Shown here piece after piece: positions 5,427 to 61,545 of a stretch of DNA of 64,000 nucleotides. Under the pieces are notes generated by a model. The model was not told where the DNA came from. It ran no database searches and worked only from the letters and a program-made list of their open reading frames with translations. Position numbers and translations under genes: made by a program. Source of the DNA: Tidjanibacter sp. (GTDB lineage: Bacteria > Bacteroidota > Bacteroidia > Bacteroidales > Rikenellaceae); NCBI GenBank assembly GCA_045580045.1, contig JAZNNC010000025.1, positions 20,367 to 84,366 on the forward strand, written 5' to 3'. The number at the start of each line of letters is the position of its first letter. The first letter of the stretch is position 1.

Positions 5427-5447
5427 AAAATTCAAAATTCAAAATTC
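5427..5447 (+). repeat. Heptamer tandem array (AAAATTC)x3
   Basis: Read directly; starts 6 nt after the rluA stop. Confidence 0.85.
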
Positions 5448-5469
5448 TTCACTAATTACTCTTTATCTT

Positions 5470-5910
5470 ATGAAGCGCAGTGTAAAGAACATACTATTGA
5501 GTATGTTGGGTTTTTCGGCAGCACCCATTCTGACTGCCTGCTATGGTATGCCCGAACCTGGTCCAGACCAATATTGGGACAAGGATTTCAAAGGCAAAGT
5601 TACCGACACATCGGGAAATCCCATTGAGGGAGTGAAGGTCTATGTGGGCCAGAGGGATTATGCCTTCCCAGACTACATATACACCCCCGTTGCAGGCCAC
5701 AACCCCACAATGACCAATGCCGAGGGTAACTTCACAATACACGTTGGCACCGTGCCACACGAAACATACTTCGTGGCCGAAGATGTGGATGGGCTTGACA
5801 ATGGGCACTACCACACTACCGAAGAGTGGCTGATGCACTTTGACGGCGTAATTGAGATGCAGGAGGTTATCTCCGACAACGAAGAAGAAACAGTCGCCCC
5901 CACCGAATAA
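5470..5910 (+). CDS. Radical-SAM-associated lipoprotein (TIGR04134-like), paralog 1
   Basis: Signal MKRSVKNILLSMLGFSAAPILTAC (lipobox Cys24) followed by YGMP; GNPIEGVKV, TNAEGNF and EDVDGLDNGHY; directly upstream of the rSAM/SPASM gene. Confidence 0.85.
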   Translation: MKRSVKNILLSMLGFSAAPILTACYGMPEPGPDQYWDKDFKGKVTDTSGNPIEGVKVYVGQRDYAFPDYIYTPVAGHNPTMTNAEGNFTIHVGTVPHETYFVAEDVDGLDNGHYHTTEEWLMHFDGVIEMQEVISDNEEETVAPTE

Positions 5911-5920
5911 GTTCTATCAA

Positions 5921-7042
5921 ATGAAAAAGGCAAAAAAGATAGGCCTGCGCAAGCGACTTGCGCTCAATCTCTTTGCAAGTATCAAAAAGGAACTCGCAAA
6001 GGAGCACGAGTTACGCGAGATTTTCTGGGAGTGTACGCTGCGTTGCAACCTCAACTGCGGGCACTGCGGTAGCGATTGTCGCAGTAGTGCCACCGTGCCC
6101 GATATGCCTGCCGAGGACTTCCTGCGAGCCATCGACCAAATCACCCCACACGTGAACCCCAACAGGGTGATGGTGGTCATCACCGGTGGCGAGGCACTCT
6201 GCCGTAAGGACCTTGAAGCGGTGGGGCGTGAACTCTACAAGAGGGGCTATCCGTGGGGTATTGTCACCAACGGTATGTTGCTCACTCGTGAGCGTATGGA
6301 GTCGCTCGTGAGGGCCGGCCTACGCTCCATAACCCTTTCGCTCGATGGCTTTGAAGATGTACACAACGCCATACGTCGCCACCCACACAGTTGGCGCAAC
6401 GCTGTGAGGGCACTGGATGCCATTGTCGCCACCGAAGGCATTGCCTACGACGTGGTTACCTGCGTGGGGCCACACAACTACGCCTCCCTGCCCGAACTGC
6501 GAGATTGGCTCATTGAGCGAGGGTGCAAGGCGTGGAGGCTCTTTACGATATTCCCCGTGGGCAGGGCTGCCGACAACGATGAGTTGCAACTCTCGTCGGA
6601 GGAGTACCGAGGGCTGATGGAGTTCATCATCGCCACCCGCAAGGAGGGACGCATCAAGTGCGACTACGCCTGTGAGGGTTTCCTCGGAGGCTACGAGGCC
6701 GAGGTGAGGGATAGGTTCTTCGGCTGTATGGCGGGAGTGAGCATTTGCGGCATAAAGATAGACGGCGCCATCAGTGCCTGCACAAGCATACGCGCAGGAT
6801 TTGACCAAGGCAACATCTACACCGACAACATCTGGGAGGTGTGGAACACCCGCTTTGAGCCCTATCGCAACCGCGAGTGGGCACGCAAGGGGGAGTGTAA
6901 GGATTGCAAGGTGTGGAAGTTCTGTCAGGGCAACGGTATGCACCTCTACGACAACGACCACAACCTGCTACACTGCAACTATAAGAGAATTCAGAATTCA
7001 GAATTCAGAATTCAGAATTCAAAATTCAAAATTCAAAATTGA
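5921..7042 (+). CDS. Radical SAM/SPASM enzyme (TIGR04133-like, rSAM/lipoprotein system)
   Basis: WECTLRCNLNCGHCGSDC (CxxxCxxC), ITGGE, SPASM-type CMAG...AC...GNI...CKDCKVWKFCQGNGMH. ATG at 5921 (MKKAKKIG). Confidence 0.9.
   Translation: MKKAKKIGLRKRLALNLFASIKKELAKEHELREIFWECTLRCNLNCGHCGSDCRSSATVPDMPAEDFLRAIDQITPHVNPNRVMVVITGGEALCRKDLEAVGRELYKRGYPWGIVTNGMLLTRERMESLVRAGLRSITLSLDGFEDVHNAIRRHPHSWRNAVRALDAIVATEGIAYDVVTCVGPHNYASLPELRDWLIERGCKAWRLFTIFPVGRAADNDELQLSSEEYRGLMEFIIATRKEGRIKCDYACEGFLGGYEAEVRDRFFGCMAGVSICGIKIDGAISACTSIRAGFDQGNIYTDNIWEVWNTRFEPYRNREWARKGECKDCKVWKFCQGNGMHLYDNDHNLLHCNYKRIQNSEFRIQNSKFKIQN
6986..7041 (+). repeat. Heptamer tandem array (AGAATTC)x5 (AAAATTC)x2 AAAATTG
   Basis: Eight units read directly; the array lies inside the last codons of the rSAM CDS. 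Confidence 0.97.
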
Positions 7043-7045
7043 CAG

Positions 7046-7085
7046 ACCCCTCCGCCTAACGGCACCTCCCCTATTAGGGGAGGAG
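7046..7085. repeat. REP-like two-hairpin palindrome
   Basis: CCCCTCC-GCC-TAAC-GGC-AC-CTCCCCT-ATT-AGGGGAG, between convergent genes. Single copy in the window. Confidence 0.55.
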
Positions 7086-7123
7086 CGGTAGGAAGGGCTG
7101 CAAAGAGCAAAAAGAGCAGAAAG

Positions 7124-7144
7124 GAATTGAGAATTGAGAATTAG
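7124..7144 (+). repeat. Heptamer tandem array (GAATTGA)x2 GAATTAG
   Basis: Read directly. Confidence 0.75.
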
Positions 7145-7153
7145 GGGAAAATC

Positions 7154-8185
7154 CTAAAAATTCTTGGGAAAATACTTCTTGCGGCCGAGCGCATAGCGGG
7201 CCACTATCCAGCCGTGCCAAATGGTGTGCGGCTCACGCACAACCGACTCTCGCCACAACTCTGTGCGTTTGATGTCCAACATTGGGCGCATCGTGCGGTA
7301 GTCCTTGTGGGCCCTTGCTACCTGCTCGGCAAGCTCCCTCCTACCACTCAAACGATAGACCAACCACGAAGCCCAATCCATCCATTTGCGCACCCTCAGG
7401 CGCCACAACTCACTCTCGGGCAGGCACTTGTGCAGCATACAGAGCGAATTGCGGAAGTTGAGATAAATCTTTCGTGGCGAGTTGTTGGGCAGAGTTCCTC
7501 CCCCGACGTGGAGCACCTCGCCCTCGGGCACCACCGCCACCTTCCAGCCACGCAATTGCAACCTCCAACAGAGGTCTATCTCCTCCATATGGGCAAAGAA
7601 ATCACCATCCAACCCACCCACACTGCGGTAGGCTTCGGCCCTGATGACCATACACGCACCGCTGGTCCAAAAGACCTCCCTTGTGTCGTCATACTGTCCA
7701 CAATCCTTTTCGGTGGTCTGCATAATGCGACCACGGCAGAAGGGGTAGCCATAGCGATCCACAAAGCCACCAGCCGCACCTGCATATTCAAAGTGGTCGG
7801 GATGGTCATAAGACAGTATTTTGGGTTGCACAGCCGCCACGTCGGGGTGTTCATCGAGGTAGTCCAGCAGAGGAGTAAGCCACCCGTTGCGAGGCTTCAC
7901 GTCGCTATTGAGCAGTACAAACACATCGGCCTCTACTCTCGCAAGCGCCCTATTATATCCCTCGGCAAAGCCAAAGTTCTCACCCAGCGGCAACCACTCC
8001 ACACTCTTTTTCTCGGTCGGGATGGCGGAATTCACCTCCTCCACCACCTTCGCGGAGCCATCGGTGGAGCCATTATCGGCCACCACAACGCCCACCTCTG
8101 TCGGTATTGTGGCAACAACCGAGGGGAGAAATTTGCTCAAAAACTTCTCTCCGTTCCAATTGAGTATTACAACTTTGGTTGTCAT
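7154..8185 (-). CDS. Glycosyltransferase family 2 protein
   Basis: VVILNWNG, ADNGSTDGS, NFGFAEGYN, LLNSD, WTSGAC, FFAHMEEIDLCWR, HVGGGT. Confidence 0.93.
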   Translation of the reverse strand: MTTKVVILNWNGEKFLSKFLPSVVATIPTEVGVVVADNGSTDGSAKVVEEVNSAIPTEKKSVEWLPLGENFGFAEGYNRALARVEADVFVLLNSDVKPRNGWLTPLLDYLDEHPDVAAVQPKILSYDHPDHFEYAGAAGGFVDRYGYPFCRGRIMQTTEKDCGQYDDTREVFWTSGACMVIRAEAYRSVGGLDGDFFAHMEEIDLCWRLQLRGWKVAVVPEGEVLHVGGGTLPNNSPRKIYLNFRNSLCMLHKCLPESELWRLRVRKWMDWASWLVYRLSGRRELAEQVARAHKDYRTMRPMLDIKRTELWRESVVREPHTIWHGWIVARYALGRKKYFPKNF

Positions 8186-8217
8186 TCCTATTGTTGCGTT
8201 CAGCTTTTAGCCGTTGG

Positions 8218-9150: not shown

Positions 9151-9206
9151 AACAAAACGAGTTACAACGTGTTACAATAAATACGGTATTAGCAAAAGTC
9201 GGCATC

Positions 9207-12581: not shown

Positions 12582-13682
12582 ATGGCATTACAATGCGGCA
12601 TAGTGGGCCTGCCCAACGTGGGCAAGAGCACCCTTTTCAACTGCCTCTCCAACGCAAAGGCACAGGCAGCAAACTTCCCTTTCTGCACCATCGACCCCAA
12701 TGTGGGCGTAATCACCGTACCCGACCAGAGGCTTACCAAACTGGCCGAGATTGACAACCCCAAGCGAGTCATCCCCACAACCATCGAGATTGTGGACATC
12801 GCAGGCCTCGTTAAGGGCGCATCAAAGGGCGAAGGTTTGGGTAATAAGTTCTTGGCAAACATTCGCAACACGGATGCTATCATCCACGTCCTGCGTTGTT
12901 TCGACGACGAGAACATTACCCACGTTGACGGCACCGTTAACCCTGTGAGGGACAAGGAAATCATCGACACCGAACTCCTCCTCAAAGACCTCGAAACAAT
13001 CGAAGGTCGCATCGGCAAGGTACAGAAGCAGGCAGCCATTGGAGAGAAAGCCGCCAAGCGTCAGTATGAGATTTTGTGCCGCTACAAGGAGGCCATCGAG
13101 GGCGGTAAGGCTGCACGCACTGTGGAAATTGACAACAAGGAGGACGCCAAGTGGGTGCAGGAGCTCTGCCTGCTGACCAACAAACCCGTGCTCTATGTTT
13201 GCAACGTGGACGAGGCAAGCATCACAAGTGGCAACGCCTATGTGGATGCTGTGCGTGAGGCCATCAAGGAGGAGAATGCCGAATTGCTCGTTGTGGCCGC
13301 AGCCACCGAGGCCGACATTGCCGAGTTGGATAGTTACGAGGAGCGTCAGATTTTCCTCGAAGAGTTGGGTATTGAGGAGTCGGGCGTGAGCCGCCTTATC
13401 AAGGCCGCCTATGCGTTGCTGGGACTTGAAACATTCTTCACCACCGGTGCCGACGAGTCGAGGGCGTGGACCTACACTCGTGGCTACAAAGCCCCACAAG
13501 CCGCTGGTGTTATCCACAGCGACTTTGAGCGTGGTTTCATCCGTGCCGAGGTAATCAAATATGACGACTACGTTGCGCTCGGTAGCGAGAAAGCTTGTCG
13601 CGAGGCGGGCAAAATAGGCATCGAAGGCAAGGAGTACATCGTGCAGGATGGCGACATTATGCACTTCCTGTTCAACGTCTAA
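12582..13682 (+). CDS. ychF: Redox-regulated ATPase YchF (Obg family)
   Basis: GIVGLPNVGKST, NFPFCTIDPN, DIAGLVKGASKGEGLGNKFL, GVIHSDFERGFIRAE, YIVQDGD. Confidence 0.98.
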   Translation: MALQCGIVGLPNVGKSTLFNCLSNAKAQAANFPFCTIDPNVGVITVPDQRLTKLAEIDNPKRVIPTTIEIVDIAGLVKGASKGEGLGNKFLANIRNTDAIIHVLRCFDDENITHVDGTVNPVRDKEIIDTELLLKDLETIEGRIGKVQKQAAIGEKAAKRQYEILCRYKEAIEGGKAARTVEIDNKEDAKWVQELCLLTNKPVLYVCNVDEASITSGNAYVDAVREAIKEENAELLVVAAATEADIAELDSYEERQIFLEELGIEESGVSRLIKAAYALLGLETFFTTGADESRAWTYTRGYKAPQAAGVIHSDFERGFIRAEVIKYDDYVALGSEKACREAGKIGIEGKEYIVQDGDIMHFLFNV

Positions 13683-13684
13683 TT

Positions 13685-13713
13685 CAAACTGCAAAATATC
13701 AAAATTCAAAATT
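13685..13713 (+). repeat. Degenerate heptamer array (CAAAATT-type)
   Basis: caaactg caaaata t caaaatt caaaatt directly after the ychF stop. Confidence 0.55.
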
Positions 13714-31872: not shown

Positions 31873-31900
31873 ATTTTTTGAGTTATCAGTTTCTTTTTTT

Positions 31901-31935
31901 AGCCATTAGCCATTAGCCGTTGACCATTAGCTGTT
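31901..31935. repeat. Heptamer array AGCCATT AGCCATT AGCCGTT GACCATT AGCTGTT
   Basis: Five units read directly upstream of udk. Confidence 0.85.
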
Positions 31936-31949
31936 ACCGTCAATGTCCG

Positions 31950-32290
31950 AGCGTAACGCATTTCATTCCCTTCTATCCTCCGATAGCACCACGCAAAAGC
32001 GATAGAATCGAGGAAATTCAAGGCCTGCGAAGCGCATTGCCACCTCATCGCACCTCCTGCGCTTGGATAGAACGGAGGGATTTCAAGGCTTGGTTGTTGG
32101 TTGGGCCCGCAGTTTACTACGGTAAATGAGGAGCCCAAACAACAAGCGTAACGCATTTCACCCCCTTTTATTATCCTCCGACAGCACCACCGCAAAAGCG
32201 ATAGAATCGAGGAAATTCAAGGCCTGTGAAGCGCAAGAAACCGCAGTTTGCTGACGCAAATGAGGATTTCGAGCGCAAGCATAACGCAGA
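31950..32290. repeat. Tandemly repeated structured (REP/MITE- or ncRNA-like) element
   Basis: About 90-bp direct repeats at 31950-32036 and 32145-32235; hairpin core CCGCAGTTTRC-N4-GYAAATGAGGA at 32107-32132 and 32241-32266 with compensatory changes. Confidence 0.85.
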
Positions 32291-32315
32291 ATTTACCGAT
32301 TATCTCGCTTTTGCA

Positions 32316-34271
32316 CTATGCGTCGATTTTCGCATACTTGGCATGCTTCTCAATAAACTCACGGCGAGGACCTACCTCATCACCCATAAGCATCGAGAAA
32401 ATCCTGTCGGCCTCGGCTGCGTTCTCAATCGACACCTGCTTCAAAATGCGGGTTGCGGGATCCATAGTGGTCTCCCACAGCTGGTGCTCGTTCATCTCAC
32501 CAAGACCTTTGTACCTCTGTACGGTAACACCCTTGGTGCCCAACTCGGCGGTAATCTTTGCCCTCTCCTCGTCGGTCCAGCAGTAGTGTTTGGCGTTGCC
32601 CTTCTTAACAAGGTAGAGAGGAGGCATCGCAATATAGACGTGGCCCTGCTCGATGAGCTCCTTCATCTTGCGGAAGAAGAAGGTCAGCATCAGAGTTGCA
32701 ATGTGGCTACCATCCACATCCGCATCGGTCATGATGATAATCTTGTCGTAGCGGAGTTTTTCGAGGTTGAGTGCTTTGGGGTCCTCCTCGGTACCGATGG
32801 TTACACCCAACGCAGTGAACATATTCTTAATCTCCTGATTCTCCCACATACGGTGCTCCTGCACTTTCTCGATGTTGAGAATCTTACCCCTCAAAGGCAT
32901 AATGGCCTGATACTCGCGGTTGCGGCCCTGCTTTGCAGTACCGCCTGCCGAATCACCCTCGACGAAGAAAATCTCCGCTTTGCTCCTATCCCTTGTGGCA
33001 CAGTCGGCCAACTTACCGGGAAGGCCCGAACCGGACAACACAGTCTTACGCTGCACAAGCTCCCTTGCGTGGCGGGCAGCGTGGCGGGCGGTTGCGGCCA
33101 ACACAACTTTATCTACAATGGCCTTTGCATCCTTCGGGTGCTCTTCGAGGTAGTTGGTCAGGGCCTGCGAGATGGCTTGGTCCACAGCCGCTGCAACCTC
33201 GTCATTACCGAGTTTGGTCTTGGTCTGTCCCTCAAACTGAGGCTCGGCAACCTTAACCGACACAACAGCAGTGAGGCCCTCGCGGAAGTCGTCGCCCGAG
33301 ATGTCGAACTTAATCTTCGAGAGCATACCGTTCTCCTCGGCATATTTTTTCATCGTGCGGGTGAGAGCCCTGCGGAAACCGGTCAGGTGGGTACCACCCT
33401 CGATGGTGTTGATATTGTTAACGTAGGAGTGCACATTCTCCGAGAAGCTATCGTTGTACTGCATAGCCACCTCAACGGGAGTGCCGTTTTTCTCGGTGTC
33501 GATGTAGATGATGTCGTCGATAATCTTCTGGCCACGGCTCTCGTCCAAGTACTCCACAAAGCCTTTCAGACCATTGTCCGAGTAGAAGTGCTCGTGGAGG
33601 TAGTTACCCTCCTCGTCTTTCTCCCTACGGTCGGTAATATCGAGGTTGATGCCCTTGTTGAGGAATGCCAACTCGCGCAACCTTGTGGCCAAAATCTCAT
33701 AGCGATAGGTTGTAGCGGTGAAGATATCGCCATCGGGCTTAAATTTGATGGTTGTACCCGTACGATCCGTTTCGCCGATAATCTTCAACTCCGAGGTCGT
33801 TACACCACGGCTGAAAGTCATCTGGTGAATCTTACCGTCCCTGCACACCGTAGCAACAAGCTCGGTCGAAAGCGCGTTCACACACGACACACCCACACCG
33901 TGCAAACCACCCGACACCTTGTAGGAGTCTTTGCTGAACTTACCGCCGGCGTGAAGAATGGTCAACACCACCTCCAAAGCCGACTTACCCTCCTGCTCGT
34001 GCATACCCACAGGGATACCACGGCCGTTATCCTCAACGGTGATGGAGTTGTCCTCGTTGATGGTTACTTTGATGTCGGTACAATAGCCTGCCAGAGCCTC
34101 GTCGATGGAGTTGTCCACCACCTCATAAACCAAGTGGTGCAAACCCCTCTCGCCAATATCTCCGATATACATTGCAGGACGTTTGCGAACTGCTTCGAGG
34201 CCCTCCAACACCTGAATACTTGATGCGGAATACTCCTCCTGTGCTACTTTTTTCTCTTCGATGTTCTCCAT
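32316..34271 (-). CDS. gyrB: DNA gyrase subunit B
   Basis: LEGLEAVRKRPAMYIG, EVVDNSIDE, GGLHGVG, FEGQTK, EGDSAGG, PLRGK, MTDADVDG, RYKGLGEM. Confidence 0.97.
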   Translation of the reverse strand: MENIEEKKVAQEEYSASSIQVLEGLEAVRKRPAMYIGDIGERGLHHLVYEVVDNSIDEALAGYCTDIKVTINEDNSITVEDNGRGIPVGMHEQEGKSALEVVLTILHAGGKFSKDSYKVSGGLHGVGVSCVNALSTELVATVCRDGKIHQMTFSRGVTTSELKIIGETDRTGTTIKFKPDGDIFTATTYRYEILATRLRELAFLNKGINLDITDRREKDEEGNYLHEHFYSDNGLKGFVEYLDESRGQKIIDDIIYIDTEKNGTPVEVAMQYNDSFSENVHSYVNNINTIEGGTHLTGFRRALTRTMKKYAEENGMLSKIKFDISGDDFREGLTAVVSVKVAEPQFEGQTKTKLGNDEVAAAVDQAISQALTNYLEEHPKDAKAIVDKVVLAATARHAARHARELVQRKTVLSGSGLPGKLADCATRDRSKAEIFFVEGDSAGGTAKQGRNREYQAIMPLRGKILNIEKVQEHRMWENQEIKNMFTALGVTIGTEEDPKALNLEKLRYDKIIIMTDADVDGSHIATLMLTFFFRKMKELIEQGHVYIAMPPLYLVKKGNAKHYCWTDEERAKITAELGTKGVTVQRYKGLGEMNEHQLWETTMDPATRILKQVSIENAAEADRIFSMLMGDEVGPRREFIEKHAKYAKIDA

Positions 34272-35130: not shown

Positions 35131-35158
35131 AAAATTGAAAATTGAAAACGGAGAATTG
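35131..35158. repeat. Heptamer array AAAATTG AAAATTG AAAACGG AGAATTG
   Basis: Read directly; inverted relative to 35221-35255. Confidence 0.75.
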
Positions 35159-35220
35159 AGATTTTATAAAAAACAACCACTTTTTTCACCCTCAAATAGG
35201 CATTTTATCGCCTTTTTCTA

Positions 35221-35255
35221 CAATTTTCAATCTTCAATTTTCAATTTTCAATTTT
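35221..35255. repeat. Heptamer array of five CAATTTT-type units (one CAATCTT)
   Basis: Read directly; ends 7 nt before the ssrA -7 box. Confidence 0.9.
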
Positions 35256-35262: not shown

Positions 35263-35270
35263 TATTTTTG
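35263..35270 (+). promoter_or_regulatory. -7 promoter box of ssrA
   Basis: TATTTTTG, 17 nt before the tmRNA 5' end. Confidence 0.65.
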
Positions 35271-35286: not shown

Positions 35287-35690
35287 GGGGTTGACCGGTT
35301 TTGACAGCAGGATATGCAGGTTGGTAAGCACGTCGAGCTTTGTGTGGGGGCTCGTTAATCTCAACGCTCAAACAATTAAATGGCAATAATAGCTACGCAC
35401 TCGCTGCTTAATTAACCGAGTTAATTGGCTTAATTTCTGCGCCCAAGGCTGGTGCGGAAACGAGTACTCCGCCACACCCTCCCGCTTCTTGTGGGCGTGG
35501 CTAACGGAGTATCATCAATGAGAAGATAGCCCGAGGGGTGTTCCGACCACAGGGCGAAACCAAACCGGAACTGGGGCTGTGATATGGTTGCCACCCACCG
35601 CATTGCAGCAGGAGGATTAAGCAGTGGATAAGCGTGTAGAAAACTTTCAGGCAGACTGTTTGGACGGGGGTTCGACTCCCCCCAGCTCCA
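35287..35690 (+). ncRNA. ssrA: tmRNA (transfer-messenger RNA), tag (A)GNNSYALAA*
   Basis: 5' GGGGTTG pairs with 3' CAGCTCC-A including a G3-U pair; T-arm GGGGGTTCGACTCCCCC; tag ORF ggc aat aat agc tac gca ctc gct gct taa at 35382-35411. Confidence 0.97.
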
Positions 35691-35693
35691 CAC

Positions 35694-35737: not shown

Positions 35738-35874
35738 CGTTGTAATGGCAGACATATTTCGTCTTGCCAAATAAAAAACGGCATTTTTTTTGGTTTGGTA
35801 GAACAACAATCAAGAAAAAGAGATACCTTTGTGGCAACATACTGAATATACATTTTTTATCATCATTCAAGACA

Positions 35875-37308
35875 ATGAAGACAACAGATTTCCCCGTGAG
35901 GGCACACTCTGAAAGCGAAGAGAGCTACAAGACTTTCACCAAAGACAAACGCAGTCGCACTTCCAGACCACAGGCACTCTATTCCACCTCATCCTACAAT
36001 CGCGCCCCAAAGAGCGAGGAGAGTGTTGAGCGCCGTTCGTTCAACCCCAACTTCACACGCGACAACCGACTAATCGACCGCAACAGGTCATCCTATGGCC
36101 GCTCGGAACGTAGCGAAGGAGGCTACAACCGCGAGGAGAGGCACTCGTTCAACCGCGAGCGCAATTTCAACCGTGAGGAGAGGCCTTCGTTCGGCCGCGA
36201 GCGCAGTTTCAATCGCGAGGAGGGTTACAACCGAGAGGAGAGGCCCTCGTTCAACCGCGAGCGCAACTTCAACCGTGAGGAGAGGCCTTCCTTCAAACGC
36301 GAACGCAATTTCAATCGCGAGGAGGGCTACAACCGAGAGGAAAGGCCTTCGTTCAACCGCGAGCGAAATTTCAACCGAGAGAACAATCAAGAGGGAGGTT
36401 TCCGTCCTCGTCATAATAAGTTTGGCAGCAAGCCGTCATTCGGCCACGACAAGGGTGGTTTTGCGCCCAAGAAGAGCAGCGGTAAGTTCCACTCCGAGCG
36501 TGCGCCCAAAGAGCCCAAACCTTTTGTAAACACAGCCAATACCTATACGTTGGAGAACTACCCCTCCTATGCAGCACCCAAAATTGAGGGCGAGATTCGT
36601 CTGAACCGCTATATCTCTATGTCGGGCATCTGCTCTCGCAGGGAGGCCGACGAGTATATCACCTCCGGACAAATCACCGTCAATGGAGAGGTCGTTACCG
36701 AGTTGGGTTCGAAGGTACACCAGAACGACGTTGTATGCTACAACGGCAAACAGATACACAACGAGAAGAAGGTCTATATTGTGATGAACAAACCCAAAGG
36801 TTTTGTTACCACTCTCGACGACCCACACGCCGATAAGAGTGTGATGGACCTCGTGAAGAACGCCTGTACGGAACGCATCTACCCTGTGGGGCGTTTGGAC
36901 AAAAACAGCGTGGGCGTGTTGTTGCTGACCAACGATGGCGACCTTGCAAAAAAGCTCACTCACCCCACCTATGAGAAGAAAAAAATCTATCAGGTGAGTC
37001 TTGACAAACGTCTGGCAAGGGCCGATTTGGAGCGTCTGATTATGGGTATCACCCTCGAAGATGGCGACATTGCCGCCGACGACGTTTGCTACGTTGACGA
37101 CCCCACTTGTAAGAATGCTGTCGGCATCGAGATTCACTCGGGCCGTAACCGTATTGTAAGGCGTATGTTTGAGCACGTCGGCTATCGTGTCGGCAAGCTC
37201 GACAGGGTGTATTTTGCAGGTCTGACGAAGCAAAAACTCAAACGTGGCGAGTGGCGATTCCTGACCGAAAAAGAGGTCTCGATGCTCAAATCGGGCAACT
37301 ACGAGTAG
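35875..37308 (+). CDS. RsuA/RluB/RluF-family pseudouridine synthase with an S4 domain and a long repetitive N-terminus
   Basis: IRLNRYIS..GICSRREAD (S4), NKPKG, RIYPVGRLDKNS, GRNRIVRRMF, LDRV. ATG at 35875. Confidence 0.93.
   Translation: MKTTDFPVRAHSESEESYKTFTKDKRSRTSRPQALYSTSSYNRAPKSEESVERRSFNPNFTRDNRLIDRNRSSYGRSERSEGGYNREERHSFNRERNFNREERPSFGRERSFNREEGYNREERPSFNRERNFNREERPSFKRERNFNREEGYNREERPSFNRERNFNRENNQEGGFRPRHNKFGSKPSFGHDKGGFAPKKSSGKFHSERAPKEPKPFVNTANTYTLENYPSYAAPKIEGEIRLNRYISMSGICSRREADEYITSGQITVNGEVVTELGSKVHQNDVVCYNGKQIHNEKKVYIVMNKPKGFVTTLDDPHADKSVMDLVKNACTERIYPVGRLDKNSVGVLLLTNDGDLAKKLTHPTYEKKKIYQVSLDKRLARADLERLIMGITLEDGDIAADDVCYVDDPTCKNAVGIEIHSGRNRIVRRMFEHVGYRVGKLDRVYFAGLTKQKLKRGEWRFLTEKEVSMLKSGNYE
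36115..36381 (+). repeat. Coding tandem repeats (REERPSFN / RERNFN / REEGYN)
   Basis: Visible in both the DNA and the protein. Confidence 0.9.
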
Positions 37309-37352: not shown

Positions 37353-37394
37353 GGACGTTGGACGTTAGACGTTGGACGTTGGACATTAGACAAT
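37353..37394 (+). repeat. Heptamer array GGACGTT GGACGTT AGACGTT GGACGTT GGACATT AGACAAT
   Basis: Six units read directly between the pseudouridine synthase and patatin genes. Confidence 0.9.
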
Positions 37395-48185: not shown

Positions 48186-48216
48186 CATAGGGAGGTTAGG
48201 GAATTTAGGTAAACCC

Positions 48217-48262
48217 ATTCTGAATTCTGAATTCTGAATTTTGAATTTTGAATTTTCAACTT
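48217..48262 (-). repeat. Heptamer array (minus strand AAAGTTG (AAAATTC)x3 (AGAATTC)x2)
   Basis: tgaattc/tgaattt units read directly; immediately downstream of the stop of 48264-48821. Confidence 0.92.
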
Positions 48263-48263: not shown

Positions 48264-48821
48264 CTACTCCCAGAATGGAACGGCACAGTCCCTCAACATA
48301 TGGGCGATGACCACATCGTCAAGTGAGGAGTTGATGGCTCCCCACACAAAGTTCTGCACCGAGCCAAACACATTGTCCACACCATTTGCCAAGCACATAT
48401 AGTACTCCTTCTGCTGGTGGGTGGTCATCCCTGCGGGCAGCACCCCTGCACTAACAAGGCTTTCGTAGGGAAATAGGTAGCGCATATTGTGTGCGTTGGC
48501 CTTGATGTCGTTCGCAATGGTCGCAACAACCACCACCTCAACACTGTCGCCCACCATTGGCATCTCGATAAACTCCACATAGGAGGGCCAACGCTCTTCC
48601 AATATGTCGGCCACCTCGGCACTAAACATCTCAAACTCTGCCTCGGTGAGAGCATTAAGGTAGGCTATCTCCCGCCACTCGCGCAACATTTCACGAGCCT
48701 CCTTGCGCTGTTTCTCGTTCCACTTCTTCTGTGGCGAGCAGCTGCTAACACACAAACACACCGCCCCCACAACGACGAAGGTAGCCAATGTAACCACCGA
48801 TTTCAAAAAATTCTTACGCAT
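48264..48821 (-). CDS. Hypothetical lipoprotein
   Basis: MRKNFLKSVVTLATFVVVGAVCLCVSSC lipobox-like signal; no family recognised. Confidence 0.7.
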   Translation of the reverse strand: MRKNFLKSVVTLATFVVVGAVCLCVSSCSPQKKWNEKQRKEAREMLREWREIAYLNALTEAEFEMFSAEVADILEERWPSYVEFIEMPMVGDSVEVVVVATIANDIKANAHNMRYLFPYESLVSAGVLPAGMTTHQQKEYYMCLANGVDNVFGSVQNFVWGAINSSLDDVVIAHMLRDCAVPFWE

Positions 48822-49003
48822 AATTTCTTTCTGGTTTTGGTAAAAAAATATTAAAAACACCACCACAACCACTGCGCAAATTTCGGGCCACAAAGGAATT
48901 TTTAGTTAGTGGAGAGCAGAAAGAGCAGAAAAAATAGGAAGGGATGGAAGGGCAGAGGTGTTATCTTGCTTGGCCCCACACAAAAAAAAGATGGAGAGTC
49001 TGT

Positions 49004-52937: not shown

Positions 52938-52972
52938 CAATTTTGAACTTTGAGTTTTGAGTTTTGAATTTT
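52938..52972. repeat. Heptamer array CAATTTT GAACTTT GAGTTTT GAGTTTT GAATTTT
   Basis: Read directly; ends 5 nt before the -7 box TATATTTG at 52978-52985. Confidence 0.8.
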
Positions 52973-53005
52973 ATTCGTATATTTGCGGGCTAATTTACGG
53001 CACTT

Positions 53006-53593: not shown

Positions 53594-53776
53594 ATGGCAC
53601 ATCCTAAACACAAGGTTTCGTCCACCAGAAGAGACAAGCGTAGGACTCACTACGTAGCAGCAGTTCCCACCGTAGCAGTTTGCTCGAACTGTGGTTCGCC
53701 CGTTCAGTACCACCGTGTATGCCCCGAGTGCGGTTTCTACCGTGGCAAATTGGCTATCGAGAAAAAAGCCGAGTAA
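53594..53776 (+). CDS. rpmF: 50S ribosomal protein L32
   Basis: MAHPKHKVS..RRDKRRTH...CSNCG...HRVCPECGFYRG (zinc-binding C+ form). Confidence 0.98.
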   Translation: MAHPKHKVSSTRRDKRRTHYVAAVPTVAVCSNCGSPVQYHRVCPECGFYRGKLAIEKKAE

Positions 53777-53786
53777 ATTCTGAACG

Positions 53787-54883: not shown

Positions 54884-54893
54884 TTATATTGGC

Positions 54894-54921
54894 GACGGTT
54901 GACGGTCGACGGTCGACATTG
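54894..54921 (+). repeat. Heptamer array GACGGTT GACGGTC GACGGTC GACATTG
   Basis: Read directly. Confidence 0.75.
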
Positions 54922-58127: not shown

Positions 58128-58640
58128 CTACTCCATTGTGGCCACAATCACAAGTTTTTTGGCCCTTTCGGAGAGGTTTGTCGTAATGTAGAACGCTCGG
58201 GGAACAAAATAAGTATATCCGGCCGAGTCAAAATTCATCTCCACAGCCACGCTCTCGCCTGCGCCCACGCTGCGGTCCTTCTCATAGTCTAACCACAGGC
58301 AGCCACACGAAGTGCTCGTGGAGGCCACCACCATCGGGCGTTGGGCTCCATTGTGCAGTGCAAAGGTGCGACTCAACACCTCGCCCTCCTTCACTCGGCC
58401 AAAGTCGATGGTGTCCACCGTGGCAGTATCGCTCACATCCACGCTCTGCAACGCCCCGATGTTAACCCCCTTCTCGGCCACACCCGCACTCCGGCCACTC
58501 CTCCGGCCACCACAACCCACACACAAAAGGCAGGCCACAAGTAGTGCCATCATAACCATCGTGGGCACACTGCAAAAACGGCCCGCCATCAGTGCAGCAG
58601 GCCGTTTTGTGTTGTTGTATGTTGGTTTTTCAACCCTCAT
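58128..58640 (-). CDS. DUF1573 domain-containing (lipo)protein
   Basis: DFGRVKEG...F.LHN...PMVV..TSTSCGC; the usual nusB-DUF1573-yajC order in Bacteroidetes. Confidence 0.8.
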   Translation of the reverse strand: MRVEKPTYNNTKRPAALMAGRFCSVPTMVMMALLVACLLCVGCGGRRSGRSAGVAEKGVNIGALQSVDVSDTATVDTIDFGRVKEGEVLSRTFALHNGAQRPMVVASTSTSCGCLWLDYEKDRSVGAGESVAVEMNFDSAGYTYFVPRAFYITTNLSERAKKLVIVATME

Positions 58641-58652
58641 TCGTCCTTGGCT

Positions 58653-59597: not shown

Positions 59598-59642
59598 AGT
59601 ATAGAACGTATTTATTTCGGCCGCAAAGATACAATGTAAATT

Positions 59643-59671
59643 TGAGATTGGAAAATTGAAAATGGAAAATT
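59643..59671. repeat. Degenerate heptamer array (GAAAATT-type) upstream of the nusB -7 box (59624-59631, minus strand)
   Basis: tgagatt ggaaaatt gaaaatg gaaaatt. Confidence 0.6.
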
Positions 59672-59744
59672 ATTCGGCATTTGCCGCAGCCTTTCGACAT
59701 ATTACTTCAAAAATAAATGTTTATTTTTGATAAATCTCTTTCAC

Positions 59745-59765
59745 CAATTCCCAATTCTCGATTTT
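59745..59765. repeat. Heptamer array CAATTCC CAATTCT CGATTTT upstream of the -7 box TACTTTTG (59772-59779)
   Basis: Read directly; inverted relative to 59643-59671. Confidence 0.6.
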
Positions 59766-59787
59766 TATAGATACTTTTGTGGCACTT

Positions 59788-61053
59788 ATGGAAATCAAAG
59801 AATACGACGTGGTAGTCATCGGCGGCGGTGCCGCAGGACTTATGGCCGCAGGAACGGCCGCCATCAACGGTAAACGAGTATTGCTGCTCGAAAAAATGGA
59901 GAAAACCGGACGCAAGGTGCGCATCTCCGGCAAAGGACGTTGCAACCTTACGAATATGTGTACCGACGAGGAGTTCTTCGCCAAAATACAAAACGGCGCA
60001 GGGTTCTTCAACTTCGCCTACACCCAATTCACAAACCGTGCTCTGGTACGATTCATGGAGCGCAAAGGAGTGAAACTTACCACAGAGAGGGGTGGCCGAG
60101 TTTTCCCCACCAGCGGCAAGGCTTGGGACATCGCACAAGCACTCGTGGACTGGTGTCGCGAAGAGGGCGTTGTGGTCGAATGTAACGCCAAAGTGGAGGC
60201 TCTCAACATCATAGCTGGCAAAGTTCGCAGCGTGGTCTATACCAACGCGCGAGGTTATAGGCGCAAGGTGGAAACCCCTGCCGTGATTCTCGCTACGGGT
60301 GGTGCATCCTACCCCGCAACCGGCTCCACCGGCGACGGCTACAAACTCGCTCACTCCGCAGGACACAACATCGTCCCCGTGCGTCCTTCGCTCGTACCAC
60401 TCGAAACATCCTACGAGGAGGCCAAATTTATGGCAGGCTTATTGCTCAAAAACGTACAAGTGCAGTTGCTCGTTGAGGACGAGGTTGTACAGAGCGAGTT
60501 TGGCGAGATGCTCTTCTCCAAGCGAGGAGTGGAGGGTGCAGTGATATTGCGTATGAGTCGCAAGGCTGTCGATGCACTCATTGACGAAAAGCGTGTGGAA
60601 CTCGAAATCGACCTCAAACACGCTATGAACCACGACGAACTCCGCGAGCGTATCCAGCGAGAGATTGCCGAACAACCCAACACACTCACCGTGGGCGAGC
60701 TGCTGCGTAAGATTATGCCACGCGAGCTCGTTGTACCTATGGCCAAAGCCATCGGTGCACACGCAAAACACTCAATGGGCGAACTCAAAGAGGAAAAGGT
60801 GGAGCGACTGACCAACACGCTCAAAGCGTTCCGTATCCCAATTAGCGACTACCGCCCATTCGAGGAAGCTATCGTTACGGCCGGAGGTGTGGACCTTGCA
60901 GAGATTAACCCACACACCCTCGAATCCACCCTTGTCAAGGGCCTCTATTTTGCAGGCGAGGTTATGGACTTGGACGCCAATACGGGTGGTTATAACCTCC
61001 AAATAGCCTTCTCAACGGGCCGATTGGCAGGACAGTTGAGAGGTGAGAATTAA
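59788..61053 (+). CDS. HI0933/YhiN (BaiN-like) NAD(P)/FAD-dependent oxidoreductase
   Basis: VIGGGAAGLMAA, GRKVRISGKGRCNLTN, GRVFP, ATGGASYPATGSTGDGY, VTAGGV, GEVMDLDANTGGYNLQ.AFSTG. Confidence 0.92.
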   Translation: MEIKEYDVVVIGGGAAGLMAAGTAAINGKRVLLLEKMEKTGRKVRISGKGRCNLTNMCTDEEFFAKIQNGAGFFNFAYTQFTNRALVRFMERKGVKLTTERGGRVFPTSGKAWDIAQALVDWCREEGVVVECNAKVEALNIIAGKVRSVVYTNARGYRRKVETPAVILATGGASYPATGSTGDGYKLAHSAGHNIVPVRPSLVPLETSYEEAKFMAGLLLKNVQVQLLVEDEVVQSEFGEMLFSKRGVEGAVILRMSRKAVDALIDEKRVELEIDLKHAMNHDELRERIQREIAEQPNTLTVGELLRKIMPRELVVPMAKAIGAHAKHSMGELKEEKVERLTNTLKAFRIPISDYRPFEEAIVTAGGVDLAEINPHTLESTLVKGLYFAGEVMDLDANTGGYNLQIAFSTGRLAGQLRGEN

Positions 61054-61068
61054 AAAAAAGGTTGAAAG

Positions 61069-61545
61069 TTGAAATTAGAGAAGAGGTTTAGGCACAGTAG
61101 GGGCTATGGAGTACACTCCCCGTTTCTCTACAAGGTGGTGCGAGAGGCTATGATGCCACGCAGGGTGGCAGCTGCCGACACGAGGCTCTTTGAGGATCTG
61201 GTGGCGGTGGGAGTTGATAGGCGCACGGCCGTAAGACTCCAAAACTACCTCTCTCTTGTGGGACACACACATTGGGCCATCAACAAAGCCGAAGGCGTTG
61301 CGGAGGATACACTGTTTGTTGCAACCACCGATTGCAGGCAGGAGGTGATAGAACTGATGAGTGATATTTGTGGAAAGGATGATACTACGATGGCAACTCT
61401 GTGCGTTATCCATCACAGAGGTAGGAGGGGTAAAGTGTGGCGTCGTGAGCTTGTTGACAGCCACAAGGGAATGAGTGCCGAGAAGCCTCGCTTCACGCTT
61501 CTCTTTTTCAACCCTGCACTGCCCAAGCAACACATTATAATATAG
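61069..61545 (+). CDS. Hypothetical protein (N-terminal RHSRGYGVHSPF motif)
   Basis: Open frame between two co-oriented genes; TTG start inside a short AAAGTTG heptamer pair. The N-terminal motif recalls Bacteroidetes methyltransferase-like proteins. Confidence 0.65.
   Translation: MKLEKRFRHSRGYGVHSPFLYKVVREAMMPRRVAAADTRLFEDLVAVGVDRRTAVRLQNYLSLVGHTHWAINKAEGVAEDTLFVATTDCRQEVIELMSDICGKDDTTMATLCVIHHRGRRGKVWRRELVDSHKGMSAEKPRFTLLFFNPALPKQHIII

Follow-up and report, generated by a model that had tools for sequence, protein, structure and literature searches.

The tandem arrays in the window, by which we mean the whole 64,000-nt stretch of DNA analyzed here, are best explained as slippage-driven long simple-sequence repeats with heptanucleotide and, less often, nonanucleotide units, which are locally filtered and sometimes co-opted; we put the probability of this explanation at about 0.6. 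The period excess in Tidjanibacter is far beyond chance, a second preferred period is 9, and the arrays grow, shrink and are replaced quickly between close relatives.

Period Spectrum and Lineage Distribution

The window spans housekeeping genes of a ruminant-gut Tidjanibacter sp. (Rikenellaceae). Tandem Repeats Finder (TRF) called period-7 arrays at 12 sites within it (Table 1), and ~8.6% of its intergenic bases fall in arrays of this period. Six perfect arrays have period 7, and none has period 5, 6 or 8–15. The 4.3 kb of window intergenic DNA contains 10 lag-7 runs of at least 10 matches, as compared to a mean of 0.15 in shuffled sequence (maximum of 2 in 300 shuffles), with one such run at lag 9 and none at the remaining lags. 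Lag 7 therefore stands far above the other lags, and the TRF calls together with the 10 runs uphold the period-7 arrays of the first-pass annotation for the main set. Two of its sites, 59745 and 61058, are marginal, as each has three imperfect units and lacks a period-7 call by TRF.

These two are weak enough to be chance matches, and 61058 behaves as ordinary conserved sequence since it is kept in 10 strains of a sister species. A chance or artefactual origin of the main set is refuted by the shuffles, in which the observed counts were never reached, and by the presence of like arrays in dozens of assemblies made independently by separate studies, leaving this explanation a negligible share overall.

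The proposal of a single shared period is not borne out. The window also contains three period-9 arrays, and in the intergenic DNA of relatives there are 47 period-7 and 25 period-9 arrays, with at most 4 of any other period. Across Tidjanibacter intergenic DNA (54 kb), the enrichment over Markov expectation is 6.8-fold at lag 7, 29-fold at lag 9 and 4-fold at lag 8, with lags 5 and 6 at ~1 to 1.8-fold. Per kb, the window has 0.22 period-7 arrays, close relatives 0.12 and Alistipes 0.056, relative to a background of 0.04; the window and several Tidjanibacter species show a strong excess, Alistipes a weaker one and other Bacteroidota none above background, and one sister species (L161–170) has no period-7 arrays over 21 kb. 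The shared period and the lineage specificity therefore argue for a common generating process, as had been suggested, and against unrelated accidents.

Table 1. Tandem arrays and an adjoining palindromic unit in the window (positions in window coordinates)
Position	Strand	Feature	Call	Context
5427–5447	.	(AAAATTC)x3	TRF	A-rich in sense strand
6986–7040	+	(AGAATTC)x5 (AAAATTC)x3	TRF	C-terminal tail of TIGR04133-type radical SAM/SPASM gene; TGA at 7040–7042
7043–7100	.	GC-rich palindromic (REP-like) unit CCCCTCCGCC...CTCCCCTATTAGGGGAG		DNA fold -15.7 kcal/mol, z = -2.9
7102–7123	.	9-mer (AAAGAGCAA)x2.4	TRF	
7124–7142	.	(GAATTGA)x2.7	TRF	
13681–13713	.	imperfect CAAAATT-type, 4.6 units	TRF	A-rich in sense strand
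31899–31931	.	AGCCATT/AGCCGTT/GACCATT, 4.7 units	TRF	
35131–35159	.	array, inverted pair with 35221	TRF	T-rich in gene's sense strand
35221–35255	.	(CAATTTT)x5	TRF	7 nt upstream of tmRNA promoter -7 box TATTTTTG (35263–35270)
37353–37391	.	(GGACGTT/AGACGTT)x5.4	TRF	between rluB-like and patatin/Omp85 genes
48188–48209	.	9-mer TAGGGAGGT/TAGGGAATT, 2.4 units	TRF	adjoins 48217 7-mer array
48217–48254	.	(ATTCTGA)x3 (ATTTTGA)x2.4	TRF	A-rich in sense strand of 48264–48893 gene
48913–48931	.	9-mer (AGAGCAGAA)x2.1	TRF	upstream of gene 48264–48893
52939–52972	.	AATTTTG/GAGTTTT, 4.9 units	TRF	T-rich in sense strand
54893–54917	.	(GACGGTT)(GACGGTC)x2.6	TRF	between tRNA-Arg terminator hairpin and CDP-alcohol phosphatidyltransferase promoter
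59651–59671	.	(GAAAATT)x3, looser units from 59633	TRF	T-rich in nusB-like gene's sense strand
59745–59765	.	marginal CAATTCC CAATTCT CGATTTT	no TRF call	inverted pair with 59651
61058–61078	.	marginal AAGGTTG AAAGTTG AAATTAG		directly after HI0933-like flavoprotein stop

Growth in Place and Copy Number

The arrays had been described as intergenic, which holds for most of them but not for 6986, which forms the 3′ end of a radical SAM/SPASM gene and is read in frame. The window gene end exceeds that of the closest relative by six units (42 nt, 14 aa). In L182, whose protein is 97% identical, the array has two units, the gene ends in AAG AGAATTC AGAATTGA and the protein in ...KRIQN*; in the window there are eight units and the protein ends in ...KRIQNSEFRIQNSKFKIQN*, with the TGA common to both. 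On the L182 contig, (GAGAATT)x5 follows this gene before the contig stops, as compared to the 2.7 units at 7124, an array 11 nt from the stop of a minus-strand glycosyltransferase gene (7154–8185). The 13681 array fills the ychF–gltX spacer, overlapping the ychF stop and ending 8 nt before the gltX ATG, and the sister-species spacer aligns with it as non-repeated TTCAACTGCAAGTTCAAAAAAAA. In the ABC–yceD spacer, the sister species keeps the promoter and has non-repeated CTTTTGTTTTTTCAATTTT in place of the 52939 array. The radical SAM array thus grew in place, as did the latter two, which align to non-repeated A/T tracts.

Copy number changes by whole units between strains, a polymorphism that the first-pass annotation had proposed looking for. 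In a closely related species, among strains whose HI0933-like proteins are identical, TACCGTC is present in 6 versus 4 copies, GACGGTY in 4.6 versus 8 versus at least 17, and AATTTTC in 5 versus 4. The 35221 array has 4 units in L023 versus 5 in the window, and the 35131 array is identical in L001 and of the same length with substitutions in L023.

Replacement at Fixed Sites

The 443-nt gyrB–udk spacer has the 31899 array at its edge, 26 nt ahead of the udk start. L003 has 3 units here versus ~5 (4.7) in the window, and other relatives have GAAAATT, GAAAGTT, GTCTAAC or 9-mers instead, so that species with GyrB 98–99% identical carry unrelated units in this spacer. Similarly, L182 has the 9-mer arrays TTTAGGGGC, TTTAAGGAC and ACTGGGAAA between conserved flanks matching those of the 5427 array, which begins 5 nt past the stop of a pseudouridine synthase gene (4627–5421) and ends 22 nt before an ATG at 5470. 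The 37353 array, which stops 12 nt before the ATG at 37404, was not found at the corresponding site in L003 and L023. The idea of a protein that reads a 7-nt lattice is not supported by the unrelated gyrB–udk units, and is countered further by copy-number variation in conspecific strains and by array-free orthologous promoters in sister species; nor is it supported that the arrays are one motif family read by one protein.

Alternatively, the arrays could be termini, target sites or scars of DNA that moves or recombines and would mark rearrangement sites, with mosaic palindromic elements or small gene cassettes inserting at or between arrays and inter-array recombination deleting or inverting sequence. 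Where the window has the single 54893 array, GACGGTY arrays in the sister species (4, 6, 8 or at least 17 copies, either orientation) bracket a 430–680 nt mosaic made up of palindromic units together with 7- and 9-mer arrays; in some strains the left array has the opposite orientation (TACCGTC versus GACGGTC). L050 and L059 have, between lpxB and trmD, a 122-aa gene flanked by inverted (AATTCAC)n arrays, judged from its sequence to be four-helix-bundle or 23S rRNA intervening-sequence-like; the corresponding window spacer is 19 nt and lacks it. The window lacks yhhN between its nusB-like and HI0933-like genes and has an inverted array pair there, and sister species have yhhN and no arrays at the 59745 site. 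A two-gene lipoprotein/radical SAM unit (5470–7042) lies between direct AAAATTC arrays, the gyrB–udk hot spot has arrays only where a 170–440 nt insert is present, and assemblies break at arrays. Many gut-metagenome contigs with other flanks begin or end in the ATTCTGA/ATTTTGA unit of 48217. However, no transposase or integrase adjoins any window array, array lengths vary, and neither a fixed terminal sequence nor a target duplication is seen. The three arrays that grew in place are accounted for by expansion of local sequence without insertion; the radical SAM pair is found conserved throughout Rikenellaceae, and 6986 expanded out of the end of its own gene. We consider it improbable that the arrays stem from or mark mobile or recombining DNA.

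Unit Families

A shared RTT anchor had also been proposed. NNNNRTT phasing is literally possible in 10 of 11 window arrays, but RTT occurs on a given strand within 30–34% of heptamers, whether random or taken from real intergenic DNA, and on either strand within 52–57%. Because about half of random heptamers phase in this way, and because the arrays fall in a few families of which three (GACGGTC, CAGCTGT-like and AGCGAGG) lack RTT, the register is uninformative. An AATT-core family, whose core is self-reverse-complementary, accounts for 8 of the 11 arrays.

The GC-rich arrays adjoin palindromic repeat elements. The unit at 7043 is a member of a dispersed family that adjoins arrays in relatives, with related units at several non-orthologous loci. 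The 9-mer at 48188 belongs to the TTTAGGGAG family, known in L002, L005, L007 and L021, and resembles the half-site CTCCCCTAA of palindromic units; the 7102 9-mer family reaches 8 copies in L004 and is found at window 48913 as well. Heptamers likewise recur at non-orthologous loci, also across genomes: GGACGTT/AGACGTT at other loci in L012, L014, L019 (AGACGTT at three loci), L045 and L055, and GACGGTY at three loci in L173. Units with palindromic cores are predicted to form slipped hairpins (z = -5.3 and -3.75), and stabilization of slipped intermediates by such hairpins is established for repeat expansion.

Arrays near Promoters and Gene Ends

The AT-rich arrays lie directly upstream of promoter -7 boxes, where the sense strand is T-rich. 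The 52939 array is 5 nt upstream of TATATTTG (52978–52985) of the yceD-rpmF-plsX operon, 59651 is ~20 nt upstream of the minus-strand box (59624–59631) of the nusB-like gene, and 59745 is 6 nt upstream of TACTTTTG (59772–59779). These positions suggest that AT-rich arrays may be functional promoter elements, tandem A/T tracts at ~-15 to -60 with a 7-bp lattice under selection, whether as UP elements or reiterated -33 or -7-like boxes that serve the Bacteroidota primary sigma factor or RNA polymerase alpha, or as nucleoid-protein sites. Each of the five promoter-proximal window arrays precedes a TAnnTTTG box by 5–20 nt and has a T-rich sense strand, while five of six stop-codon-proximal arrays are A-rich (Fisher p = 0.015); one of the arrays near stops, 48217, is 9 nt past the stop of the minus-strand gene 48264–48893. 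Further, four Alistipes species share a (GAATTTT)n array ahead of one and the same promoter, six strains keep a promoter-upstream (AATTTTC)x5 unchanged, a single mismatch separates the unit GAATTTTG from the -7 consensus TAnnTTTG, and CAAAATT-type arrays recur at distant Bacteroidota loci (L098, L080, L117). Against this, the sister-species orthologous promoters of yceD and the HI0933-like gene lack arrays, a pooled orientation count over relatives (with crude gene calls) is without bias, and array-free promoters show T peaks at ~-23, -15 and -3 rather than a 7-nt lattice. The GC-rich arrays, the 9-mers and the arrays between convergent genes are also left unaddressed by this reading. A promoter role is thus a minority possibility, and one compatible with a slippage origin, as co-option.

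Action at the RNA level is considerably more doubtful. The arrays would serve as unstructured A-rich leaders aiding translation start, or as tandem sites for single-strand RNA-binding proteins of cold-shock or S1 type (~7 nt per protein), as proposed for TAACTGA repeats. Shine–Dalgarno pairing is seldom used in Bacteroidota. The 5427 and 13681 arrays are 22 and 8 nt upstream of starts in likely operons, with an A-rich sense strand, and no structure is predicted for CAAUUUU-type arrays. CAATTTT arrays are present in RNA contigs that have low depth and different flanks, which is weak support as DNA carry-over is possible; the matching RNA contig spans 35295–35683, placing the 35221 array outside. 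An RNA-binding model is discussed for TAACTGA repeats by MacGregor 2015 (PMC4679880). However, many arrays precede promoters or lie between convergent genes, several are predicted to fold as hairpins and so would not be unstructured, and different units occupy the same site.

Proposed Origin and Relation to Known Heptamer Repeats

In the slippage model, a short local sequence would be tandemly duplicated in place, and whole units would then be gained or lost via slipped-strand mispairing or unequal recombination, in spacers of a Tidjanibacter lineage that also gather GC-rich palindromic (REP-like) units. We infer slippage as the molecular step from the changes described above. The local seed would set the unit: A/T tracts near promoters and stop and start codons may give the dominant [C/G]A[A/G]AATT family, and dispersed palindromic mosaics the GC-rich families (GACGGTY, AGACGTT/AGCCRTT) and 9-mers. 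Most arrays would be nearly neutral, with local function filtering survivors toward a T-rich sense strand just upstream of -7 boxes and an A-rich one at stop codons and in short co-directional spacers; an array in a gene end would be held in frame.

Several observations weigh against slippage. Simple slippage would not be expected to enrich periods 7 and 9 but not 5, 6, 8 and 10, and the preference for these periods remains unexplained by it. GC-rich units that recur at non-orthologous loci need seeds that are themselves dispersed, and unrelated units alongside 99% identical GyrB look like replacement rather than stepwise drift. The stability of some promoter-proximal AT-rich arrays in the six strains and four Alistipes species hints at constraint.

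Heptanucleotide repeats are the most abundant long simple-sequence class in many prokaryotes, and polymerase slippage is the cause given for their excess (Mrazek 2007, as cited in PMC4679880 and PMC4692102). In Xanthomonas, GGGAATC arrays occur between the same genes and differ in both length and sequence from one close species to another (PMC4692102); the Tidjanibacter arrays likewise lie between the same genes and vary between close species. The earlier comparison with cyanobacterial STRRs is sound as an analogy but not as shared sequence, since no STRR unit is found in tandem here, nor is TAACTGA or GGGAATC. On our best reading, the arrays are of the same class as the heptamer excess of Mrazek 2007, the cyanobacterial STRRs and Xanthomonas GGGAATC. 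The Tidjanibacter arrays are thus a new example of the known, unexplained excess of heptamer repeats in bacteria.

Heptamer arrays in a housekeeping region

The window, from a species of Tidjanibacter (Rikenellaceae, Bacteroidales), covers a chromosomal region of housekeeping genes, and its GyrB is 98–99% identical to those of Tidjanibacter MAGs from the ruminant gut. Genes were mapped with a self-trained codon-usage caller and named from Pfam, and the intergenic share of the 64 kb comes to about 4.3–4.9 kb. Tandem Repeats Finder reports period-7 arrays at 12 sites listed in the first-pass annotation, with 2.7–7.9 copies each; two further sites (59745 and 61058, arrays being named by their start) are marginal at three imperfect units each. 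The arrays are head-to-tail tandem repeats, as are long simple-sequence repeats (SSRs; unit of 5–11 nt, at least three copies), and they occupy about 8.6% of the intergenic bases. The same program finds 9-mer arrays at 7102, 48188 and 48913. The neighbouring genes include gltX, ychF, tmRNA, gyrB/udk, yceD-rpmF-plsX, a nusB-like gene and pseudouridine synthases. The arrays had been described as intergenic, which holds for most of them, but array 6986 is coding, translated in frame as the C-terminus of a TIGR04133-type radical SAM/SPASM gene product. A known RNA family was rejected as the identity of the arrays: Rfam matches in the window are the tmRNA (tag GNNSYALAA) and two tRNAs only, and the array-rich loci of relatives have none.

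Two further coding features lie in the window. Between yceD and plsX lies a small gene under the ORF length cut-off, starting MAHPKHK..., which is probably that of ribosomal protein L32 (rpmF), and because of it this apparent spacer counts as coding. In the rluB-like pseudouridine synthase gene, the N-terminal coding part contains repeats nested at 42, 60 and 102 nt (units CAACCGCGAGGAGAGGC...), a low-complexity stretch that precedes the S4 domain. Coordinates are collected in the table.

Positions of genes, repeats and structured elements in the window and in compared loci
Feature	Locus	Position	Strand	Remark
Palindromic (REP-like) unit copy	window	7043-7100		between array 6986 and the 9-mer/7-mer pair 7102/7124
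Palindromic (REP-like) unit copies	L173	4218-4360		array-bearing sister species
Palindromic (REP-like) unit copies	L176	4088-4345		
Palindromic (REP-like) unit copies	L172	20880-21240		
Palindromic (REP-like) unit copies	L178	13040-13900		
gyrB-udk spacer	window	31873-32315		
Hairpin copies	window	32057-32155, 32190-32288	minus	within gyrB-udk spacer
gyrB	window	32316-34271	minus	
tmRNA	window	35287-35691		
rluB-like pseudouridine synthase gene	window	35764-37308		
Nested coding repeats	window	36117-36386		within rluB-like gene
Probable rpmF	window	53594-53780		between yceD and plsX
Site without yhhN	window	59598-59778		
tRNA-Gln promoter region	window	62690-62740		
yceD-rpmF-plsX promoter region	L173	2240-2302		array-bearing sister species
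Defence-island-like gene block	L172	1-7140		some sister-species strains
122-residue gene	L050	1721-2089	minus	between lpxB and trmD
122-residue gene	L059	about 1810-2170		between lpxB and trmD

Period preference and unit families

Perfect arrays in the window number six at period 7 and none at periods 5, 6 and 8–15. When intergenic runs of at least ten matches are counted instead, there are ten at lag 7, one at lag 9 and none at other lags, and 300 shuffles gave a mean of 0.15 and a maximum of 2 at lag 7. The window arrays thus exceed what composition yields by chance, as those of the heptanucleotide long SSR class do, and the array family is real and statistically strong. The predicted excess of period 7 over 5, 6 and 8 holds in the window and in relatives, but period 9 is preferred as well.

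The first-pass annotation had also phased the units to a shared NNNNRTT register and proposed either a common mechanism or a protein that reads a 7-nt lattice. RTT is present in 30–34% of random or real intergenic heptamers per strand, and in 52–57% when either strand is allowed, so that the register is uninformative. One family, with an AATT core that is its own reverse complement, accounts for eight of the 11 window arrays, and the GACGGTC, CAGCTGT-like and AGCGAGG families lack RTT among the 58 intergenic period-7 arrays of the Tidjanibacter loci. The RTT-lattice interpretation is therefore not supported, while a common, lineage-specific generating process is.

Most of these 58 arrays (40) have the AATT core, [C/G]A[A/G]AATT, and ten fall in the one-step series AGACGTT–AGCCGTT–AGCCATT; the units of the few that remain are GACGGTC, CAGCTGT-like or others. 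Non-orthologous loci share GC-rich units: AGACGTT lies at three loci in L019, from a relative, and GACGGTY at three loci in L173, from an array-bearing sister species. The 9-mer families are TTTAGGGAG, AAAAGAGCA, TTAAGGGCY, CCTAGTRGC and TATAGGAGT. Outside the genus, CAAAATT-type arrays are found again in Alistipes and in distant Bacteroidota. Exact three-unit arrays of the GC-rich units occur in viral contigs, five each for (AGACGTT)3 and (GACGGTC)3, but shuffled-unit controls are found in 14 and 3, and the idea that these units are special outside the genus was rejected. Finally, arrays whose units have a palindromic core are predicted to fold as slipped hairpins (z=-5.3 for GAATTC plus one base, z=-3.75 for the ACGT core), the arrays of GTCGAC plus one base do so more weakly (z=-1.7), and folding prediction gives no hairpin for CAATTTT arrays.

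Growth, copy number and replacement

The coding array offers a comparison between two states of one gene. In L182, a relative carrying the same radical SAM/SPASM gene with a protein 97% identical to that of the window, the gene ends AAG AGAATTC AGAATTGA and the protein KRIQN, with two units; the window gene has eight units up to the same TGA, and its protein ends KRIQNSEFRIQNSKFKIQN. The six additional units amount to 42 nt, or 14 residues, and the pair is a direct snapshot of array birth by growth in place at a gene end, from two to eight units. Where the window has arrays in the ychF-gltX and ABC-yceD spacers, the aligned A/T-tract sequence of sister species is without repetition, and the adjoining promoter is kept.

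Copy-number polymorphism, which had been suggested as a check, was sought among strains of one closely related species whose HI0933-like proteins are identical; one of the loci, L174, shares its assembly with L055, whose partial GyrB (residues 148–651) is 99% identical to that of the window. TACCGTC is present in 6 or 4 copies, GACGGTY in 4.6, 8 or at least 17, and AATTTTC in 5 or 4, and one site has TACCGTC in some strains and the near-complement GACGGTC in others. Promoter-adjacent AT-rich arrays are stable, as evidenced by an (AATTTTC)x5 array that is the same in six strains. Arrays change by whole units, as long SSRs do, both among strains of the sister species and between species.

Between species, the gyrB-udk spacer is a hot spot, with arrays in 13 of 24 relatives; the six neighbouring spacers have them in at most about 23% of relatives, mostly under 15%. 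AGCCRTT units number five in the window, three in L003 and four in L002 (both loci of relatives), the spacer has GAAAATT in L001 and L023, whose GyrB is 99% identical, and other relatives have GAAAGTT, GTCTAAC or 9-mers. Stepwise drift of one ancestral array is ruled out, since the units of the species are not single steps apart on the same strand. Arrays occur here only where the spacer is 173–443 nt long; four species have 16–38 nt.

The same spacer contains two copies of a hairpin of about 60 nt, UGCGUUAYGCU - stem - CUCAUUUAC..GUAAACUGCGG - stem'. It also lies just 3' of gyrB in twelve compared loci (L001–L004, L012, L013, L015, L016, L021, L023, L045 and L055), as part of a 100–200 nt module in 1–3 copies, and is absent where the spacer is 16–38 nt. 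Across 16 distinct copies, compensatory changes are seen at at least seven base pairs, one of which appears as CG, UA, GC and AU. The hairpin matched no Rfam family and is put forward as a candidate for a new structured element, either RNA or DNA.

Distribution among relatives

The comparison drew on the GyrB loci of 80 species-representative genomes, against a background of 80 distant metagenomic PlsX loci (relatives at up to 61% identity). Exact look-ups of two window proteins returned no record. The close Tidjanibacter relatives (469 kb, about 55 kb of it intergenic) contain 47 intergenic arrays of period 7 and 25 of period 9, and each remaining period from 5 to 15 is represented by at most four. 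Over a first-order Markov expectation, the enrichment is 6.8x at lag 7, 29x at lag 9 and 4x at lag 8, with lags 5 and 6 at about 1 to 1.8x. The period-7 excess is weaker in Alistipes and other Rikenellaceae, and is near background in Marinifilum and other Bacteroidota.

Density is uneven within Tidjanibacter as well, from six arrays in 22 kb at some loci to none at others. In ten strains of one sister species (HI0933-like protein 91% identical), period-7 and period-9 arrays are absent over up to 21 kb, a span that includes the orthologues of six array-bearing window spacers. In public DNA runs, the region is represented by contigs of relatives at about 90% identity; these contigs end at arrays, and the array units recur at many other loci. 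In a full-text literature search, no account of arrays of this kind emerged for Rikenellaceae or Tidjanibacter.

Position relative to genes and promoters

The window promoters carry the TAnnTTTG -7 box that is typical of Bacteroidota, and five AT-rich arrays (35131, 35221, 52939, 59651 and 59745) lie 5–20 nt upstream of such a box. In the sense strand of the following gene, the promoter-proximal arrays are T-rich in five of five cases; arrays abutting a stop codon are A-rich in the sense strand in five of six (5427, 6986, 13681, 48217 and 61058, the exception being 7124). In the window's small sample, this contrast gives a Fisher p = 0.015. The pattern is weakened because the pooled relatives, with crude gene calls, display no orientation bias and because array-free promoters reveal no clean 7-nt lattice. 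A global rule of array orientation relative to genes is thus unsupported by the pooled count, and the bias is confined to the window's small sample.

A 7-nt lattice inherent to Bacteroidota promoters would provide an alternative explanation for arrays at these sites. Among array-free promoters (sets of 156, 204 and 283), T frequency peaks near -23, -15 and -3, with weak autocorrelation at lag 7–8; such a lattice was rejected as a general explanation. An UP-element-like promoter module would be A/T-tract DNA in a fixed orientation ahead of the core promoter, bound by the C-terminal domain of RNA polymerase alpha and raising transcription; the five T-rich window arrays agree with that picture, whereas the unbiased pooled count and the lack of arrays at sister-species promoters do not. 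A (GAATTTT)n array ahead of one promoter is conserved across four Alistipes species. In metatranscriptome contigs, the tmRNA is covered from about 35295 on and the upstream array is left out. As a separate observation, the promoter regions of tRNA-Gln in the window (GGAAAAAACTTTTGTATTTTCAATTTTATTCGTATCTTTGC) and of yceD-rpmF-plsX in a sister species are nearly identical; this likeness looks like a promoter module common to strongly expressed genes.

Palindromic units, mosaics and gene insertions

At the site where the window has a single GACGGTY array (54893), the tRNA-Arg/CDP-alcohol phosphatidyltransferase spacer of the sister species contains a mosaic of 430–680 nt with GACGGTY arrays at both ends, composed of GC-rich palindromic units (e.g. 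CTCCCCTAAGTTAGGGGAG), 9-mer arrays and 7-mer arrays. Palindromic units such as CTCCCCTAAGTTAGGGGAG and CTCCCCCTCTGAGTTAGAGGGAG are dispersed over non-orthologous intergenic sites in Tidjanibacter, in modules of about 125 nt with 1–4 copies depending on the strain. The window has a copy of its own, and the 9-mer CTCCCTAAA is similar to the palindrome half-site. These neighbouring palindromic units, though not the arrays, are dispersed imperfect palindromes that cluster in spacers with strain-variable copy number, in the manner of REP/BIME mosaics. No RAYT (Y1) transposase was found among the genes scanned in the 64-kb window.

Inverted arrays also accompany differences in gene content. A 122-residue gene occupies the lpxB-trmD gap (19 nt in the window) of two Rikenellaceae loci, L050 and L059, and is bracketed by inverted (AATTCAC)n arrays; the product (..SIGANVREA..KLSIALKEASETEYWLELL..) is judged from its sequence to be a putative four-helix-bundle or 23S rRNA intervening-sequence-like protein. 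In two sister species (L161 and L173), yhhN lies between the nusB-like and HI0933-like genes; the window is without yhhN, and at its place is the inverted array pair 59651/59745. Some sister-species strains carry, in place of the recQ...DUF2147 segment upstream of yajC, a block of AbiEii, OLD-family nuclease/ATPase, UvrD-type helicase and HTH_17 genes (L172) that resembles a strain-specific defence island.

Comparison with known repeat systems

A heptanucleotide excess has been reported in prokaryotes, with polymerase slippage put forward as its cause and with other phyla listed among the genomes richest in such repeats (Mrazek, Guo and Shah 2007; Huang and Mrazek 2014; summarised in PMC4679880 and PMC4692102). 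Like that class, the Tidjanibacter arrays are tandem head-to-tail heptamers, mostly intergenic, patchy by lineage and strain-variable; they differ from it in the second period of 9, the association with palindromic units and the presence of close array-rich and array-free species side by side.

The cyanobacterial STRRs of Calothrix and Nostoc and the Nostoc GGGGAYT repeats likewise comprise several heptamers per genome, intergenic and in inverted pairs, but they belong to another phylum, have other units, and differ in G-quadruplex potential, which the window arrays lack. The STRR units are CCCCAGT (STRR1), TTGGTCA (STRR2) and CAACAGT (STRR3), and neither tandem STRR1–3 nor GGGGAYT copies occur in the window. 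Nor is the host a cyanobacterium, heterocystous or otherwise, as the Tidjanibacter GyrB match, the tmRNA tag GNNSYALAA and the Bacteroidota -7 boxes establish; the window arrays are thus not STRRs by either unit sequence or host.

The GGGAATC arrays of Xanthomonas stay in place from one close species to the next while their length and sequence vary (Rehm et al. 2015, PMC4692102). The present arrays similarly share gene intervals, vary in length and sequence, include some inverted pairs and have neighbours without a functional theme, but Xanthomonas has one dominant G-rich, quadruplex-prone unit, in contrast to the AT-rich AATT-core family and several GC-rich units here. TAACTGA direct repeats are known from Beggiatoaceae, Cyanobacteria and a few Bacteroidetes, some of which have other heptamers in the same spacers (MacGregor 2015, PMC4679880). 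These too are heptamer direct repeats near start codons and gene ends; unlike the window arrays, they consist of a single unit with stops in all frames and a fixed orientation to the start codon, and TAACTGA has zero occurrences on both strands of the window. The REP/BIME mosaics of enterobacteria and REPIN-type elements (PMC3116915, PMC3184786) resemble the present loci as intergenic hot spots, between convergent or co-directional genes, that mix short palindromic units with other motifs in strain-variable copy number. The heptamer arrays differ in being direct repeats rather than palindromes, and their relation to the palindromic units is one of adjacency only.

Contingency SSRs, which serve phase variation in host-adapted bacteria, usually have units of 1–5 nt, and their copy changes switch the reading frame or promoter spacing of surface or restriction-modification genes. 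The window arrays are likewise hypermutable tandem repeats near promoters and gene ends, but their neighbours are housekeeping genes. Because the arrays are distal to the -7 box, the number of units leaves core promoter spacing unaffected, and the lone coding array is in frame at the extreme C-terminus. The arrays therefore do not behave as phase-variation loci.

Origin and significance

The arrays fall in a known class together with the heptanucleotide excess of Mrazek, the cyanobacterial STRRs and the Xanthomonas GGGAATC arrays (PMC4679880, PMC4692102). The best-supported reading is that they are long SSRs. An array would be born when a local heptamer or nonamer is duplicated, and slipped-strand mispairing or unequal recombination would then expand, contract or remove it, arrays being concentrated in a lineage with a strong period-7 and period-9 bias. 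Seeds for the AT-rich family would lie near promoters and gene ends; the recurrence of GC-rich units at several loci would be explained if the dispersed palindromic mosaics carry their seeds. Orientation and frame would be filtered by local function, and some of those close to promoters may have been recruited as A/T-tract elements upstream of them. Transposon target-site duplication could be considered as the source of periods 7 and 9, but we set it aside given the absence of a transposase, arrays of 8 to at least 17 units and blocks of variant units. Long arrays with such blocks are typical of slippage.

We consider it unlikely that some Tidjanibacter species, and not their sisters, carry a specific generator or binder that builds and maintains both the palindromic units and the arrays of 7 and 9 nt. 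It could be a variant of the replisome or of repair, an enzyme of Y1/RAYT type, or a protein that recognises the 9-nt half-site CTCCCCTAA in DNA; this half-site is found in inverted form within the palindromes and as direct tandem copies in the CTCCCTAAA arrays. If such a factor exists, the heptamer preference could be tested by gene presence and absence between array-rich and array-free sister species.

In practical terms, the arrays break short-read assemblies and lengthen one protein by 14 residues, and in metagenome-assembled Rikenellaceae genomes they make spacers unreliable for strain typing and promoter prediction. The bacterial heptamer excess has been noted since 2007, and the cyanobacterial one since the 1980s, and to our knowledge it has no accepted cause or function. 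This lineage adds a gut Bacteroidales case with several unit families and a period of 9, along with snapshots of birth, within-species copy change and replacement. Its value is moderate and comes mostly from the natural contrast between sister species, since close species with and without arrays provide the comparison needed for seeking a genetic determinant.
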